Shown: piece by piece, positions 23,327 through 49,219 of the stretch
Position numbering within the stretch: the stretch's first letter is position 1
How the letters are laid out: each line of letters begins with the position of its first letter
Origin: Puniceicoccaceae bacterium
GTDB taxonomy: Bacteria > Verrucomicrobiota > Verrucomicrobiia > Opitutales > Coraliomargaritaceae
Length of the DNA: 64,000 bases
Assembly: GCA_022448585.1 (NCBI GenBank)
Contig: JAKVCN010000009.1
Span: forward strand, 13,426-77,425
Direction: 5' to 3'
Made by a program: the position numbers and the translations under genes
Notes under the pieces: generated by a model
The model's database searches: none
What the model was told of the DNA's origin: nothing
What the model saw: the letters and a program-made list of their open reading frames with translations, nothing else

Positions 23327-23421
23327 GGCCGGGTCCTATGCAATACTGGACAAGCGAACCCCGTCAGGCCCGGAAGGGAGCAGCGGTAGTTTGAACGGCA
23401 TGTGCCGTAGGGTGCCTGGCC
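23327..23421 (+). ncRNA. ffs: Signal recognition particle RNA (small 4.5S type)
   Basis: CCCGUCAGGCCCGGAAGGGAGCAGCGGUAG matches the universal SRP domain IV core (GUCAGGUCCGGAAGGAAGCAGC). The termini GGCCGGGU / GUGCCUGGCC pair to close a long hairpin. It lies immediately upstream of dnaX, a synteny known from Bacillus. Confidence 0.85.
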
Positions 23422-23521
23422 ACTTTAGTATAGCTTAATTATATTTTCCTACTGCTGGTCTCTATACTATGAAAAGTCACTTGCCAGTAATGATATTTAG
23501 TAGCTTTATAAAATAATTAGT

Positions 23522-40951: not shown

Positions 40952-42418
40952 ATGTCTTACGAAGCAGTTATAGGTCTTGAAGTACACGTACAAATAAAGA
41001 CGCGTACGAAGATGTTTACTGCTGCGCCCTATGTTTATGGAGCGGAACCAAATACGCTAACTGATCCCGTGGTACTTGGCTTACCTGGTACCTTGCCAGT
41101 ACTTAATCACGCCGCAATTGAGAAATGTGCTAAACTAGGGCGCATGCTACAATGTACTATTGCTGAGCAGTGCAAATGGGATAGAAAAAATTACTTCTAT
41201 CCAGATTCTCCGAAGAACTACCAGTTGACTCAAAATGAACAACCGCTGTGTATTGGAGGAAAGGTTGAAATTGAATTGCCTGGGCCATCAAGAAATATCG
41301 AGGGCGATCACCGTTGGGTGCAACTCAATCGCATCCATTTAGAGGAGGATCCAGGTAAGCTGAGTCACGAGGCATTCGATACAGTCATCGACTTCAATCG
41401 TGCTGGAGTACCTTTAGCAGAGATTGTCACTGAGCCTGATATGCATAGCTCTACCGAAGCAGTGGCTTTTCTTAATGCACTTCGTAATCTCATCATCTAT
41501 GCTGACATTTCCGATTGTGATATGGAAAAGGGGCAAATGCGCTGCGATGCGAATGTTTCGCTGCGTGCGGTTGGCACCCATTTGCTTGGTACTAGGACCG
41601 AAATGAAGAATTTAAATTCTATTTCTAATGTAAAAGCTGCGATCGAATATGAGATTGCTCGGCAAACCGAGATCCTTGATGAGGGTGGGGGTATTTCCCA
41701 AGAAACGCGTCGCTGGGATGTGGAGAGCAGCAGTAGTTTTTCTTTGCGCAGTAAAGAAGAAGCACACGACTATCGCTATTTCCCAGACCCTGATTTGATG
41801 CCAGTAGTGATGAATCCACAGCGAATTGAGCAGTTGGATTCGCAGTTACCAGAACGCCCATTGGATAAGCAACGTCGTTACCAGTCGGATCTCAACTTAC
41901 CTTATACTATTACGTCGGTGTTGTGTCCGAATTTACAGTTATGTGAGTTTTTTGAGGCAGCTATAGAAGTTTACCCTTCGCCCAAGGCGATCGCTAACTA
42001 CATAACTAATGATTTGCTCCGTGAACTATCTGATGCTTCCGCATACGGAGAATCCTCTCAGATTTTGAGTGATTGTAAACTTTCGCCTACGCACATTGCT
42101 AATCTCGTTAAAATTATCGATATGGGCGTTATCTCAAAGCAGATTGGCAAGGAAGTATTTACTGAAATGTTCAACACTGGAACTATGCCAGACGTGATCG
42201 TGGAAAAAAAAGGTTTAAAGCAAAGCAGCGATAGTGGAGAGATTGAAGCATTATGCCGCGAGGCAATAATGGATAATGAAAAGGCTGTTACTGAGTATAA
42301 GGCAGGTAATATCAAGGCGCTAAATGCACTCAAAGGCCCTGTCATGAAGGCAACTAAGGGCAAAGCAAACCCAGCGATGCTTGACGATTTATTAAAAAAG
42401 CTGATCGATAATGCCTAG
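40952..42418 (+). CDS. gatB: Asp/Glu-tRNA(Asn/Gln) amidotransferase subunit B
   Basis: YEAVIGLEVHVQ N-terminus, EEDPGK, RCDANVSLR, and a C-terminal YqeY-like tail. Confidence 0.95.
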   Translation: MSYEAVIGLEVHVQIKTRTKMFTAAPYVYGAEPNTLTDPVVLGLPGTLPVLNHAAIEKCAKLGRMLQCTIAEQCKWDRKNYFYPDSPKNYQLTQNEQPLCIGGKVEIELPGPSRNIEGDHRWVQLNRIHLEEDPGKLSHEAFDTVIDFNRAGVPLAEIVTEPDMHSSTEAVAFLNALRNLIIYADISDCDMEKGQMRCDANVSLRAVGTHLLGTRTEMKNLNSISNVKAAIEYEIARQTEILDEGGGISQETRRWDVESSSSFSLRSKEEAHDYRYFPDPDLMPVVMNPQRIEQLDSQLPERPLDKQRRYQSDLNLPYTITSVLCPNLQLCEFFEAAIEVYPSPKAIANYITNDLLRELSDASAYGESSQILSDCKLSPTHIANLVKIIDMGVISKQIGKEVFTEMFNTGTMPDVIVEKKGLKQSSDSGEIEALCREAIMDNEKAVTEYKAGNIKALNALKGPVMKATKGKANPAMLDDLLKKLIDNA

Positions 42419-42530
42419 CAGCTTGCTTGGCTGTGCTTGATTAGTGCAAACTAATGTGCTCGTAAGCTACTTGTGTTTGTTTTCGGTGCTTTCTTTCTTG
42501 AGCGTTAGTGCTCTTATCTAAAGCGGCTTG

Positions 42531-42551
42531 CAATCGATTTTCGATTGTTTT
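42531..42551 (+). terminator. Possible intrinsic terminator of gatCAB
   Basis: CAATCGA-TTT-TCGATTG is a perfect 7 bp hairpin followed by TTTT. The stem is AT-rich, so confidence is modest. Confidence 0.4.
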
Positions 42552-42740
42552 GCGCTACCATTACAAGGGGTCGTCTGATAGCTTAGCATCGGCTACTGCG
42601 ACACCTTGCTGTGCCAATTAGTTATTATCGAACTTTAGTTCGAGTAGTTGGATTTACCTGCAATGATCAAATGCGCCTCTCCAGTAGACCCAATTCTCAG
42701 AGGAAGTTTTTTCATCAGTAAGTATCAGTGATAGATGCAC

Positions 42741-42770
42741 AAAAAACCCGTAGACTACAAAGTCTACGGG
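42741..42770 (-). terminator. Strong intrinsic terminator on the minus strand
   Basis: The minus strand reads CCCGUAGACU-UUGU-AGUCUACGGG (perfect 10 bp stem) followed by UUUUUU. On the plus strand no U-tract follows, so it is unidirectional. Confidence 0.78.
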
Positions 42771-43715
42771 TCTATCGCCACTCAAATAAGAATTTTGATA
42801 CTATCTAATTATTATTCTCCGAAGATGTAATAAAAAGGTGAGGAGTGGGAACTCGCCACGTTCTCTTTCCTCGTTGCACTGGCATTAGGCGCCATCCCAT
42901 CCGTCGAATGATGTGGCTGCCAGTTCCCCGACGCTACGCTAGTTAGTAAGACGATTCTAACTAATAGGTCCCGTAGCGGGACCAGTAACTGATGTCACCA
43001 TCAGTAACTCTTGGGGTGAGACTTCTCTGCTTGCAACATAAATACTTGCTAATATTTACAATACAAACACGGCTTCTAAAAATACTGAGATTAATTTTAA
43101 GTAGCCTTAGCAAAAGGTCGGCACTGCTATAAAAGTCAGTCGTTTGCCTTATACCACGGGTCTTGTCTCTTATCCCGCAAGTTGCATTCAATTCTCAGGC
43201 GAACGATTCTGTTAAAACCTCCCGCTTATCGAATGTTATTACATAAAGAGCCCGCCAACGGCCGCCCGTTGTCACAACTTAATATGCTCAATTCACAGAG
43301 TTACGATTTTTTTTCCCCTAATTGGTTGCGAAACCTTTAGGATCGAGTGGTTGTATAATTGTCTTACCACTAAATAGTAACTCCATACTAGCTCACAGTA
43401 GCAACTATCGGTCTGAGACCGACTGTGTGTGTAATCATAAACAAATGAACCCTGTTATTGACTACATAACTCGGAGAGCAAGGGGTTCATGCTATAGCGA
43501 CAAATTATAAAAAGTGCTATTGCGAATGCTCACCGCCTACATCCATATCGTTAAACGCAGAAGGTAAACGAACCCTCTGTGAAAGTAGGTGACATGTGCC
43601 TACCTTATGCGCCACCAAAGTGTCGCTACAGTAGGAGCCGGGTACGCTAGTTCTGCCCGGCTATTTGTCTGAACTAATCAGACTTTATCGAGATAATGTG
43701 CGAGTAGTACAATTA
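42741..43715 (-). ncRNA. Candidate large (~0.95 kb) highly structured non-coding RNA of unknown family; 5' end approximate
   Basis: ORF-poor region carrying at least 15 near-perfect hairpins (listed in findings). G.U pairs occur only when read on the minus strand. A GUGA loop and a terminal intrinsic terminator fit that strand, and a TTGACA hexamer lies at 43740-43745 (minus). No canonical tmRNA, RNase P, 6S or group II signatures are complete. Confidence 0.4.
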
Positions 43716-43853
43716 AGTAACACTTACACAGATCGCTTCTGTCAAAGATCGTCTACCAGTAATGATAGGTTAGTTATAATCTTAATAATAATCATCGAGG
43801 TCAATAATTAATTTTATAAATTGCTGTTTGTTAATAATTTACGTAATTATTGT

Positions 43854-43926
43854 GAATAAGTTCGGAAACATATGTTTATCAGTATTTTATGTTGTTAATA
43901 AGTCGTTAATAAGTGTGAACTTATTC
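43854..43926. promoter_or_regulatory. Cluster of AATAAGT-core repeats (possible operator array) in the AT-rich spacer
   Basis: GAATAAGT at 43854-43861, tandem GTTAATAAGT at 43894-43903 and 43905-43914 (11-nt period), and inverted ACTTATTC at 43919-43926. Confidence 0.3.
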
Positions 43927-44266
43927 TTTTCACGAAAATAATTGATATTTATTAGGCATTTTTTGATTTTTTGTCCGTTATTTTTTGTATCTCATTACTT
44001 CTAAGTTCGATTAAAACAGACCATTGGTTCTTGCAGTTAAGATACTAGTTATAATTATATCTTTGGTTTATGAATAACCCCTTTCTATCGTATCATTATA
44101 GATGCTTTCTGGTATCGTTCATTCTGTTTTGAAAATTTACCCGAACATTGTTTTAGCTGAAAACTCAGCAGAATTTCTAGAATACTCGAGTCACGCACTC
44201 CTACATAAAGGTCTAGAACTTGGACTTATTGTCTTTCTGGGGAGTCTAAAAGTTGCCCTAAAATAA

Positions 44267-45070
44267 GTGAAGTATGCGCCTATAATCCTCCTTAGCCTCT
44301 CATGGCTAACGCCACTTACGTGGTCTTCTGAGTCAACTATAAAGCCTTACCGTTACGGAGACTTACTAATAAATGAGGAGACGGTTCTACCAGAGCCGAT
44401 GGATACCGATGGGCTTAGCCAGAAAGTAAGGGACACGCTAGAAAGCTATTACAGAAATAACCTTGGTGGTGCAAACAACTGGCAGAAAATAAAAAGCATG
44501 CGTGTTAAGGGTAAGTTAAATCTCCCTAATGGTAAATCCTATGAATTTGCTAATTATAAGAAGAAACCCGATTTTAATAAGTCTGTTGTGTATTTGGCTA
44601 ATAATCATAAAATTATTACTTGCTTCGATGGAGTCGAAGCTTGGCAAATTATGACTTTCGAGTCGGAAACTGCCAAGACAATGCCACAGGATGCTTCAGT
44701 AGATTTTATTCGTGATTCTTGGTTTGGTGGTCACTTACTTCGTCCGTTGCTTCCAGGTAAAACCATAGAGATACTTGAGGCTATTGAAATAGATGGTAAA
44801 ATATGTGTACAAGTTAAGGTTGTCCTGCCTAATCAGCAGTATTATCTATACGCCTTAGACTCTAATCGTTATCAAGTAGTCGAGGAGTCAGTTAAAGTTG
44901 ATGGCTCTAAGAGGCTAATTAAGCAATCCGATTTTAGGGTAGTATCGGGACTAATGATACCCTTTAGGAGTAAATTGTACACCGATGGCGTGCTTGTTCA
45001 GGAAATACTCATAGAAAGCGTGGTCGTAAACAAGGGAGTCATGCCTTGGATGTTCAAAAGACCTGAGTAA
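44267..45070 (+). CDS. Secreted hypothetical protein (possibly LolA-like beta-barrel fold)
   Basis: GTG start and signal peptide MKYAPIILLSLSWLTPLTWSSE. The sequence is beta-rich with no catalytic motif, so the fold assignment is only a guess. Confidence 0.55.
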   Translation: MKYAPIILLSLSWLTPLTWSSESTIKPYRYGDLLINEETVLPEPMDTDGLSQKVRDTLESYYRNNLGGANNWQKIKSMRVKGKLNLPNGKSYEFANYKKKPDFNKSVVYLANNHKIITCFDGVEAWQIMTFESETAKTMPQDASVDFIRDSWFGGHLLRPLLPGKTIEILEAIEIDGKICVQVKVVLPNQQYYLYALDSNRYQVVEESVKVDGSKRLIKQSDFRVVSGLMIPFRSKLYTDGVLVQEILIESVVVNKGVMPWMFKRPE

Positions 45071-45138: not shown

Positions 45139-46164
45139 TTAAGATAAACTAATCCCTAGTTTTTCGATATCATTTTTTCGTACGATCCACCTCGAACGTA
45201 GCTCTTCTAGATGCCTGTTTCCTTCAGCTTTATTGATATGTCTTCGGCTAAACTCTAAACTTAAGGATGATGGAAGTGCATCACCTTTTTCGGTGTACGC
45301 AAAAGTTAAAAAGTTTAGTAGAGTGTTGTAGGAAGGAAACTTGGGAAAATCATTAGAAAAATTGGTTTTATACCAGAGCTTGAAGTGATTGGAAAGTTTG
45401 CCACTCCCGTCATCAAAAAAGCGTTCAGTGCTGTTTCCTGCTACAGAATAAGGATGGTATTTAAATAGTTCAGGATAATGTTCTGCCATCCAACTTGCTA
45501 CCATCCAGTATTCACTAAAGGTTTCGTGAGTTTCGACACTATCAATCATTATCTCCAGCCAGTGCTTGGAATTACCATGTTCAAGATGACTCAACAGCGA
45601 ATCTATAGCCGGTCGGTAAAACCACATATGGTGAGGAATAAATGTGGCTTCTGAATCATGTACAGGACTTACAGAAAGGAACTCATCTATCCATTGCTCC
45701 CAGAAAGAGACAATTTTCTTATTGAGCTTACTTTTGTGCTGTAAGAGTGCGTAGGCTGGGGAATTATTTATTTCTCCCCTCCATGCCTTTATTGGGATTA
45801 GATCGCTATCCCAAATAAGTGTCCAATCGCTGAGAGCAGGAAGCACACGAAGGCAGCCTAGCTTTAGTAATTGTTGATAAAACCAGCCAGGTTGGTACTG
45901 GTCGTTAATATTTTTAAGACGGTCGCAAATTAGTTTTTTACTTAGTTTATTATCAGCAAAAAAACTATTTTCGTCGTAGAAATAAACTGGCGCACAGTCC
46001 CACTTTTTTACATATTTTCCGAGTGTTTCTATTTCGCTAGGCAAAGTAGCGATATGTATAGACCTAGGACTGAAATGCTTTGAAATACCCTCTAATACCG
46101 ACCTTGTATGCCAACCACTCTCAAATAAAGGCATAAAAATAGTTTTAGTATTAGAAATTTGCAT
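45139..46164 (-). CDS. Hypothetical protein, possibly GT-A-like nucleotide-sugar transferase
   Basis: 341 aa, soluble, with a DxD-like motif in LIWDSDLIPIKAW. It starts 16 nt downstream of the cyclase gene on the same strand. No family could be assigned from memory. Confidence 0.55.
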   Translation of the reverse strand: MQISNTKTIFMPLFESGWHTRSVLEGISKHFSPRSIHIATLPSEIETLGKYVKKWDCAPVYFYDENSFFADNKLSKKLICDRLKNINDQYQPGWFYQQLLKLGCLRVLPALSDWTLIWDSDLIPIKAWRGEINNSPAYALLQHKSKLNKKIVSFWEQWIDEFLSVSPVHDSEATFIPHHMWFYRPAIDSLLSHLEHGNSKHWLEIMIDSVETHETFSEYWMVASWMAEHYPELFKYHPYSVAGNSTERFFDDGSGKLSNHFKLWYKTNFSNDFPKFPSYNTLLNFLTFAYTEKGDALPSSLSLEFSRRHINKAEGNRHLEELRSRWIVRKNDIEKLGISLS

Positions 46165-47896: not shown

Positions 47897-48127
47897 AGTT
47901 ATATGACTTAATAGTGATGAACTATATATAGACTACGGCTTACTCGCTAAATGCAAATTTCTTGGGTAAAAATTTAAACAAAAAATGAGTCTACGCCTCA
48001 GTTTTAAAACTTTTAGTAGTTGATTTTTTACTGGTAAATATTTCCGTAAAGCATCGTGTAATTATTTCTAATGTTTTTTTTATTAGACCACTTAACAACT
48101 ACACTACAATATTTTCATAGGCTCATT

Positions 48128-48934
48128 ATGAAAAACTCAAAAACTTTTAGTGTATCTTTATTATGCTTTGCTTTAGTTAGTATTGCCCAAGGGGCAGTAA
48201 ATGTGCTCGTATCTGACAGTTTCAATCGAACGAATAACACAGATCTGAATGCCGATACTGCCGGCAAATCTGGTAGTCTGGGTACCGTTGACTGGAGTGA
48301 GATTTCTCATAAAGGTTCTCCAGAGGTAGTAAGTAATCTATTACAACTTGGAGAGCTGAGTGCTGCTGGTGGATGGTCAATCGCTTGGATGAATCACAAT
48401 TTCACGGATAGTGAGATCTACAATTCAGGTGAATTTACTGTCTCGGTGGATATAATCAATTTAGGAAGTACGGGGGGTACACGCTTCAGTGGTTTTGCGG
48501 TCGGAAATTCATTAAGTGATCTTTCCAATTGGTCTGCTAACAATCCTAGCGTTTTCACATCAGATTTTTTTATTGGCTATGACCCCACAGGCACTACTGA
48601 AGTTAAAGTTTTTCTCGGTGGAACGCAGGATTATCATCAGACTATTGACTTGGGTTCAGAAGCAAACCTCTCGGTGAGATTTCATAGTTTTTCTAATTTT
48701 AATGCAGGTACAAATGTGAACTACGAAGCCTCAATTAATGATAGCATTGTAAAAACAGGGGTTTTCTCTTGGTCAGGTACGAACGAAAATTACATCAACT
48801 TGTACTCGAATTATTCCTTACACACTGCTCGATTTGACGATTTTGAGGTCAGTGCCGTGCCTGAACCGTCCACTTATGCATTTCTTTTTGGAGCATGCAT
48901 CCTCGGTTACGCATTGTGGCGAAAAGGAAAGTAG
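48128..48934 (+). CDS. PEP-CTERM-anchored secreted protein
   Basis: Signal peptide MKNSKTFSVSLLCFALVSIAQG and C-terminal VPEPSTYAFLFGACILGYALWRKGK (PEP motif, TM helix, basic tail). The start was taken at the internal ATG 48128. Confidence 0.85.
   Translation: MKNSKTFSVSLLCFALVSIAQGAVNVLVSDSFNRTNNTDLNADTAGKSGSLGTVDWSEISHKGSPEVVSNLLQLGELSAAGGWSIAWMNHNFTDSEIYNSGEFTVSVDIINLGSTGGTRFSGFAVGNSLSDLSNWSANNPSVFTSDFFIGYDPTGTTEVKVFLGGTQDYHQTIDLGSEANLSVRFHSFSNFNAGTNVNYEASINDSIVKTGVFSWSGTNENYINLYSNYSLHTARFDDFEVSAVPEPSTYAFLFGACILGYALWRKGK

Positions 48935-49131: not shown

Positions 49132-49219
<88 letters not shown>

Follow-up and report, generated by a model that had tools for sequence, protein, structure and literature searches.

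We analysed the gap that follows gatB in a 64,000-nt stretch of DNA from a Puniceicoccaceae bacterium (contig JAKVCN010000009.1; the whole stretch is called the window, and all coordinates are positions in it). The host organism is uncultured and known from metagenome contigs alone. The gap of 1.85 kb runs from the end of gatB at 42418 (NCBIfam GatB, 586 bits) to the start of the next long open reading frame (ORF) at 44267, which encodes a hypothetical protein. Between these two genes lies, on the minus strand, a gene for MISL RNA (Rfam RF03079), and it is this gene that explains the seemingly "empty" interval, which deserves a MISL RNA annotation. The same order of gatB, gap and hypothetical gene is found on ENA metagenome contigs with an identical GatB, where the gap was left unannotated by the gene callers. 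The candidate region holds just two ORFs, 42961..43191 (minus, 76 aa) and 43322..43510 (plus, 62 aa), and its GC content is 0.39–0.49 across 42.8–43.7 kb, compared with 0.22–0.27 across 43.7–44.1 kb. A preliminary description made from the sequence alone had noted the gap with its two short ORFs on opposite strands, had judged 42.84–43.69 kb to be richer in GC than the adjoining spacer, and had proposed an ornate structured RNA of ~1 kb on the minus strand. All three statements were borne out.

To identify the RNA, the whole window was compared with Rfam 15 using cmscan at the gathering threshold, and three families were matched. One of these, at 42848–43690 on the minus strand, is RF03079, MISL RNA, which scores 304.2 bits (E = 7e-90) and so exceeds the gathering score of 274.6. 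The match spans model positions 1–751 of 751, is not truncated, and occurs on the minus strand only. When the printed alignment was converted into base pairs, 150 of the 172 consensus pairs (through model position 735) were canonical in the window sequence. The junction blocks UAAGAG..AGACCCGU..GGCAAACG, GCGUCGGGGA..GGCAGCC..GGCGCC and GGAAAGAG, near-invariant in 81 homologues, are also present here. The full-length covariance model match and the 150 canonical pairs therefore make the locus a member of the catalogued family, and the full-model score, consensus structure, junction blocks, covariation and taxonomic setting all agree with this assignment. The body here is 843 nt long, against 751 positions in the model, and its score is low for the family (304 bits, compared with 301–605 bits in 16 other passing loci). 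The kind of element is already known, being in Rfam, and the locus is a routine, low-scoring member of it.

A permissive cmscan of 42400–44300, using both strands, all 4227 Rfam 15 families and E <= 1, again placed MISL above threshold. Besides MISL it returned only chance-level matches to L20_leader (E = 0.33) and Ocean-VII (E = 0.92). OLE, GOLLD, ROOL, HEARO, raiA, tmRNA, RNase P, 6S, SRP and group II intron models gave no match in the region at E <= 1. The preliminary description had been reminded of OLE, GOLLD and ROOL but had stopped short of assigning the RNA to any of them; the RNA belongs to a different family of large RNAs.

The features of the locus, in the 5' to 3' direction of the RNA, are as follows.

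43776..43804, minus strand: predicted sigma-70-type promoter from a consensus scan (-35 TTGACC at 43799–43804, 17-nt spacer, -10 GATTAT at 43776–43781).
43754..43769, minus strand: 5' hairpin CUAUCA-UUAC-UGGUAG, from folding; lineage-specific, upstream of the 5' box.
43737..43750, minus strand: conserved 5' box GAUCUUUGACAGAA, also termed the GUUCnUUGAnAGAAC box; outside the Rfam model, contains TTGACA.
43740..43744, minus strand: 5' strand of pseudoknot PK0, UGACA; pairs with 43590–43594.
43697..43730, minus strand: P0 hairpin, from folding; between the 5' box and the model start.
43590..43594, minus strand: 3' strand of PK0, UGUCA within AGGCACAUGUCAC; single-stranded in the Rfam consensus.
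43483–43490/43445–43452, minus strand: PK1, a loop-loop pseudoknot from covariation, AUGAACCC pairing with GGGUUCAU.
43014..43176, minus strand: conserved core domain; a long-range helix (43174–76/43014–16 and 43166–69/43018–21) closes a multi-helix junction.
42878..42934, minus strand: 3' domain; invariant GCGUCGGGGA at 42925–42934, hairpin 42878–84/42918–24 and GCGCCUAA at 42885–42892.
42840..42872, minus strand: 3'-terminal element, from covariation, with the hairpin GAAC-GUGGCGA-GUUC at 42849–42863.
42869–72/42840–43, minus strand: 3' closing helix GAGG/CCUC (GGG/CCC-type); the Rfam model ends before its 3' strand.
42774..42839, minus strand: 3' spacer of ~65 nt; lineage-specific, variable in the closest relatives.
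42741..42773, minus strand: intrinsic terminator ACCCGUAGACU-UUGU-AGUCUACGGGU plus U run (-26.6 kcal/mol, z = -6.3).

Both strands of the 843-nt core fold more stably than dinucleotide shuffles (minus strand, -277.1 kcal/mol, z = -6.9; plus strand, -237.1 kcal/mol, z = -5.7), with the minus strand more stable by 40 kcal/mol. For comparative analysis, 96 full-length homologues were aligned by sequence only with MAFFT, leaving 81 after dereplication. Across these 81, the Rfam pairs are 74% canonical, compared with 40–50% when the 3' partner is shifted by one or two columns; many helices are 88–100% canonical, and changes on both sides occur in 109 of 171 pairs. Homologous loci exist and covary, one of the checks that the preliminary description had set for its own claim; two further checks, for coding remnants and for dispersed copies of the hairpins, also came out in its favour. 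The two ORFs, for their part, could be taken as traces of a decayed or small protein-coding gene. However, when both were compared with eight relatives, substitutions were spread evenly over the codon positions (e.g. 33/30/29) and the relatives had many indels of 1, 2, 4 or 5 nt. None of the 120-nt windows examined for 3-periodic conservation gave a signal (all p > 0.16), neither ORF had a Pfam match, and there was no reverse transcriptase-like ORF. With no coding signal at the locus, we give a protein-coding origin practically no credence.

The alignment also allowed each of the 15 helices listed in the preliminary description to be assessed. Ten of them correspond to consensus helices: 42878–84/42918–24, 42940–63, 42967–83, 42985–43008 and 43346–71, and further 43394–427, the 43408–22 that it encloses, 43558–79, 43636–62 and 43667–83. 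The GUGA loop reported for 42985–43008 is accordingly the loop of a consensus helix, where the consensus reads GuAA. Two more (43256–71 and 43324–35) are lineage-specific tips within consensus hairpins, and one is the pseudoknot PK1. The remaining three are complementary here, unconserved in homologues, and in conflict with the consensus. For 43154–80, the required pairs would be A-G in 78 of 81 homologues and A-C in 66 of 81, and the helix overlaps the long-range helix, which is 100% conserved; 43582–606 retains just two G-C pairs in homologues; and 43108–29 falls mostly in gapped alignment columns. The strand had been called in part from G.U pairs in three helices; the call was right, but two of the three (43154–80 and 43582–606) are among those without support.

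PK1 has its core kept in 62–77 of the 81 homologues, with one position occurring as AU 55, GU 11 and CG 2. In the alignment of the closest relatives it forms with four different pairings (GAACC/GGUUC, AAACC/GGUUU, AAAUC/GAUUU and GAAUC/GAUUU). The long-range helix of the core domain is 100% canonical in the 81 sequences, with double changes, and drops to 28–74% when the partner is shifted. The junction that it closes carries the invariant blocks GGGAUAAGA, AGACCCGU, GGCAAACG and GCCGACC. There are 107 near-invariant positions in all, 68 of them unpaired in the consensus, and the unpaired ones concentrate at the core junction and in the 3' domain (GCGUCGGGGA, GCGCCUAA). Judged from these pairing patterns, the comparative data show a complex fold with at least two pseudoknots (PK0 and PK1) and a long-range helix.

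One reading of such a core is that it is a catalytic site, in which AGACCCGU, GGCAAACG, GCGUCGGGGA and other blocks act on the RNA itself or on a cellular substrate. The large size, the several multi-helix junctions, the two or more pseudoknots and the concentration of the 68 near-invariant unpaired nucleotides at junctions would all suit a ribozyme. Set against this, the RNA has no similarity to any Rfam ribozyme family at E <= 1, no conserved flanking processing site was identified, and OLE and raiA are comparably conserved without demonstrated catalysis. We consider a ribozyme unlikely, although serious enough to be kept in view. The reading that we prefer is that MISL acts in trans as a housekeeping RNA, with the invariant junction core as its working surface. 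That core may be the scaffold of a ribonucleoprotein or a ligand-binding core, to which we would give a little less than an even chance.

Conservation extends past both ends of the Rfam model. The 5' box, ~55 nt upstream of the model start, has the general form G-u-U-C-n-U-U-G-A-n-A-G-a-A-c, with ten positions invariant in 70 dereplicated homologues. Its second variable base (n) covaries with a base (n') in an internal single-stranded block, AGGCA..n'UCAC. In a 50-sequence alignment the n/n' pair is AU 21, UA 9, CG 8, GC 3, GU 2, UG 1 and other 6, while the flanking pairs U-A, G-C and A-U are each present in 50 of 50; a regex count agrees. No other column outside the box shares as much mutual information with this box base as the n' column does. 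PK0 together with helix P2 is 87.5% paired, compared with 69.5% in shuffles, and none of 500 shuffles reached the pairing or the covariation score. The covariation between the box base and the internal base and the invariant flanking pairs together define the pseudoknot PK0. Box positions 5 and 15 had no convincing covarying partner in the rest of the RNA. An alternative GUUC/GAAC hairpin within the 5' box has a stem that most lineages keep unchanged but that is disrupted in the lineage of the window.

The TTGACA in the box had been taken, in the preliminary description, as a perfect -35 element followed by a weak -10. The hexamer is indeed at 43740–45 on the minus strand. It does not serve as a -35, however, but belongs to the conserved 5' box engaged in PK0. 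In other lineages the hexamer reads TTGATA, TTGAAA or TTGAGA and lacks a -10 at 17 nt downstream, and the variable base covaries internally. In those lineages, a TAnnnT-like hexamer is instead found 5–9 nt upstream of the box. Because the variant hexamers lack a -10 and the TAnnnT-like hexamer precedes the box, we rejected TTGACA as a promoter element.

Between the box and the model start, the P0 helix covaries phylum-wide (e.g. UA 25/AU 10/GC 10/GU 8 and CG 33/GC 10/AU 8/GU 7). The lineage-specific 5' hairpin has counterparts at the same place in the eight closest relatives, which have a different stem and UUCG or GNRA-type loops; in strain variant L167, C43769 is changed to U and a G.U pair is retained. 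At the other end, pair 42862/42850 of the 3'-terminal hairpin occurs as AU 40, CG 31, UA 9 and GC 1, and the 3' closing helix is canonical in 74–80 of ~80 sequences, mostly as invariant GC. The 5' box with PK0, P0 and the 3' clamp, none of which the Rfam model includes, may be new, as may the covariation found for PK1. Covariation thus shows an architecture in which the 5' box is paired internally through PK0 and is followed by P0 and then by the consensus helices, PK1 among them; the long-range helix closes the junction with its many invariant unpaired nucleotides, and the short closing helix clamps the 3' hairpin. A bolder proposition is that the functional form of MISL is larger than the catalogued model, locked by PK0 through the 5' box and by the 3' clamp, and is a housekeeping RNA with its own biochemistry, as a ribozyme or the core of a ribonucleoprotein. 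This we hold to be doubtful; if true, in vitro work on the Rfam-defined fragment would miss the native fold.

MISL would form its own transcription unit, running from the predicted promoter at 43776–43804 through a start near 43769 to the terminator at 42741–42773. The predicted start lies just upstream of the lineage-specific 5' hairpin, ~25 nt beyond the end coordinate of the preliminary description, which had therefore set the 5' boundary of the RNA too short. The predicted -35 is identical in two strain variants; the -10 region differs in one of them and is still AT-rich. From these predicted ends, the primary transcript is likely to be ~1030 nt (~43769 to ~42741). The strong unidirectional terminator placed by the preliminary description at 42741–70 was corroborated by folding, which found no U run on the plus strand. 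Most other lineages lack the 3' spacer before it and have the terminator directly after the conserved 3' end; a hairpin and U run lie downstream of the MISL 3' end in the homologues examined. The consensus promoter/terminator scanner did not list this terminator and folding confirmed it; apparently the scanner extends stems greedily across G-U and A-U pairs and so took up part of the U run, a behaviour by which it may overlook further terminators.

The two strain variants of the locus are 99.2% and 98.9% identical to the window over the gap. Within the 843-nt body they differ at two adjacent positions, 42913–14, at a variable hairpin tip, compared with 15–19 differences in the ~500-nt upstream spacer. 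These counts point to purifying selection on the MISL body. The spacer itself (43751–44260), very AT-rich (GC 0.22–0.27) and leading towards the divergent hypothetical gene, holds nearly all of the strain differences. In strain L167, 11 differences are clustered in the predicted MISL -10 and spacer region. On the other side of the RNA, the ~320 nt from the gatB stop to the MISL terminator (42419–42740) are identical in both variants and have Rfam matches at chance level at most. They include a weak terminator-like hairpin, CAATCGA-TTT-TCGATTG-TTTT, at approximately 42530–42553 on the plus strand, and then ~185 nt in which no feature was identified.

Besides the promoter-like element and the terminator, indirect evidence of expression came from IMG/VR. 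A pattern scan gave 47 matches, 42 by chance and 5 true MISL fragments, all on short contigs. In L154 (IMGVR_UViG_3300037627_000005) the fragment at 31–421 accompanies a picorna/dicistro-like RNA-dependent RNA polymerase, an RNA helicase and VP4; in L164 (IMGVR_UViG_3300034676_001488) the fragment at 15–480 accompanies a levivirus maturation protein. RNA-virus contigs can derive from cDNA only, so the MISL segments are most plausibly explained as an abundant cellular RNA that was joined chimerically to viral sequence. A prophage att-site reading of the truncated MISL on L154 was rejected, as the rest of the contig is a picorna-like RNA virus and a chimeric cDNA assembly accounts for it better. 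The contigs are thus indirect evidence that MISL is transcribed in nature and do not inform on strand or ends. The two RNA-virus records would therefore contain cellular RNA, and MISL seems plentiful enough in RNA samples to be drawn into such assemblies.

We searched for homologues in species-representative genomes using one strict pattern (20 specified bases from the conserved core), which gave at least 119 loci. Using nhmmer, a MISL homologue was found in all 119 of the pattern matches listed, and of 18 loci examined, 16 exceed the gathering score of Rfam (301–605 bits, 759–909 nt). By record title, nearly all of the matches listed are from Verrucomicrobiota. They cover Opitutaceae/Opitutales, Puniceicoccaceae, Verrucomicrobiales, Akkermansiaceae, Chthoniobacteraceae, Limisphaerales, Methylacidiphilales, and subdivisions 3 and 6. 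The genera listed include Opitutus, Lacunisphaera, Nibricoccus, Roseibacillus and Haloferula, which we take to have cultured members. Nearest to the window among the listed matches are a North Sea Opitutaceae metagenome-assembled genome (MAG) and two Puniceicoccaceae genomes. Homologues also turned up in three non-verrucomicrobial records: a Stutzerimonas marianensis scaffold (L033, 858 bp), a Saccharimonadales MAG (L035) and a Blastochloridaceae MAG (L109). These are short or MAG contigs, and contamination or mis-binning is therefore likely, rather than horizontal transfer.

The position directly downstream of gatB could suggest that the RNA acts in cis, as a giant 3' UTR or antisense RNA of gatB or as the leader of a neighbouring gene, and there is also the sub-threshold L20_leader match over 42734–42867. 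The RNA is, however, on the opposite strand to gatB and has its own terminator, which in most lineages comes directly after it; the L20_leader match is at chance level (21 bits, below its gathering score of 58.7; E = 0.33). Moreover, gatA or gatB adjoins MISL in none of the 119 listed other loci, and synteny with gatCAB/pheT, which we considered as a candidate arrangement, occurs in none of them either. No neighbour family is common to more than 24 of the 119. The commonest are a divergent HrpB-type helicase (24/119) and a downstream TypA/BipA (20/119), and each of these neighbourhoods appears to be synteny inside one family. In other lineages the neighbours are L25, Pth, L9, a CysK-like enzyme or an M23 peptidase, and more generally lineage-specific housekeeping genes. 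The missing synteny effectively refutes a cis-acting role, to which we assign only a very slim probability. Across lineages, a promoter-like element lies upstream of MISL and a terminator downstream. The neighbourhoods show a stand-alone RNA gene that is not fixed to one neighbour family.

The high density of hairpins could also have come from dispersed palindromes of the REP type, or from the RNA of a mobile element, for instance a group II intron or a guide RNA associated with an IS. Yet no part of 42741–43770 recurs in the 64-kb window (best E = 0.67), so the hairpins have no dispersed copies there. MISL is single-copy in the window, and four chromosome-scale records likewise gave one match per contig. 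The neighbours of the listed loci include no reverse transcriptase, transposase or integrase, and there is no Rfam intron or HEARO match. We regard the chance of a repeat or mobile element as minimal. In the matches listed, MISL has the behaviour of a housekeeping gene that is present in single copy and inherited vertically in many verrucomicrobial orders.

Mobility also bears on whether MISL might form an RNA-only homo-oligomeric assembly, as ROOL, GOLLD and OLE do according to cryo-EM (Kretsch et al. 2025, PMC12286853). MISL resembles them in size and in its ornate architecture, several of its loops are of the GNRA type, and no protein gene is consistently linked to it in the 119 listed loci. 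ROOL and GOLLD, however, are typically associated with prophages and tRNAs (PMC5737381), whereas MISL had no blastn match in phage (50,697 records) or plasmid (72,556 records) collections. IMG/VR holds just 5 short MISL fragments, at least two of them on the probably chimeric RNA-virus cDNA contigs. An assembly of this kind seems improbable to us. Whatever is not claimed by it, by the ribozyme, or by the scaffold or ligand-binding core that we favour, we reserve for something else.

Taken as a whole, the best explanation of the locus is a stand-alone gene for the highly folded MISL RNA, which would act in trans through its invariant junction core, and we consider this highly probable. Several points nevertheless count against it. 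The score of 304 bits is close to the gathering threshold, which we attribute to low GC and lineage-specific insertions. Several helices are displaced by one or two columns relative to the window, and the pair counts come from a sequence-based MAFFT alignment with simple controls. PK0 consists of a single covarying position flanked by invariant pairs. The 5' end is predicted only, and the -10 region varies between strains. The description of MISL as widespread comes from one strict-pattern scan (at least 119 loci). Finally, our literature search found no functional study, protein partner, ligand or reaction for MISL. In that search the primary description of the family was not located, and the name is absent from the main-text part of Weinberg et al. 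2017. The sole mention was in the Ribonanza preprint, where a MISL window serves as an example of chemical mapping; other matches to "misl" were to the Salmonella gene misL or to words such as "misleading".

The finding is a solid recovery of a family already catalogued, to which modest structural refinements have been added. At ~750–900 nt, MISL is among the longest bacterial orphan non-coding RNAs. The 5' box with PK0, P0, PK1 and the 3' clamp give better construct boundaries for structural work, pull-downs and genetics in relatives that have been cultured.

Elsewhere in the window, the other Rfam matches at gathering level were a bacterial small SRP RNA at 23327–23424 (plus strand, 71.9 bits) and a tRNA at 49137–49218 (minus strand, 52.9 bits). 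Two ORFs adjacent to the RNA, 44267–45070 (plus, 267 aa) and 45139–46164 (minus, 341 aa), had no Pfam or NCBIfam match. A 287-aa ORF at 48071–48934 (plus) has a weak C-terminus of the PEP-CTERM-anchor type (24 bits, below the cut-off).

Compared with RF03079 as catalogued, the locus has the same full-length, above-threshold match, the same sequence blocks and helices, and the same verrucomicrobial setting. It differs in that conservation and covariation continue past both model ends (5' box, PK0 and P0; the 3' strand of the closing helix), and in that the window's lineage adds the 5' hairpin and the 3' spacer before the terminator. ROOL and GOLLD are likewise very large, ornate bacterial RNAs that came from comparative genomics and whose biochemical roles are unknown. 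They are often found in prophages and near tRNAs (PMC5737381), whereas MISL has no match to their models, lies among lineage-specific housekeeping genes and had no phage or plasmid copies in the collections searched. The housekeeping-like inheritance of MISL in the matches listed thus contrasts with these phage-associated RNAs. With RNase P RNA, tmRNA, 6S and SRP RNA, MISL shares a single-copy, stand-alone gene with its own promoter (a predicted one for MISL) and terminator in housekeeping surroundings. None of their models matches in the region, however, and a normal SRP RNA is encoded elsewhere in the window (23327–23424). In contrast to these universal RNAs, MISL is limited to one phylum among the matches listed.

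OLE is also a large chromosomal non-coding RNA (~600 nt), rich in invariant nucleotides and only partly understood in its function, and its pattern of inheritance and restriction to a clade are further points of likeness. It belongs to extremophilic Firmicutes and has linked genes for partner proteins. MISL differs from it in having no sequence or structure similarity at E <= 1 and no consistently linked gene. We infer that, in behaviour, MISL comes closest to OLE and not to ROOL and GOLLD with their phage associations.

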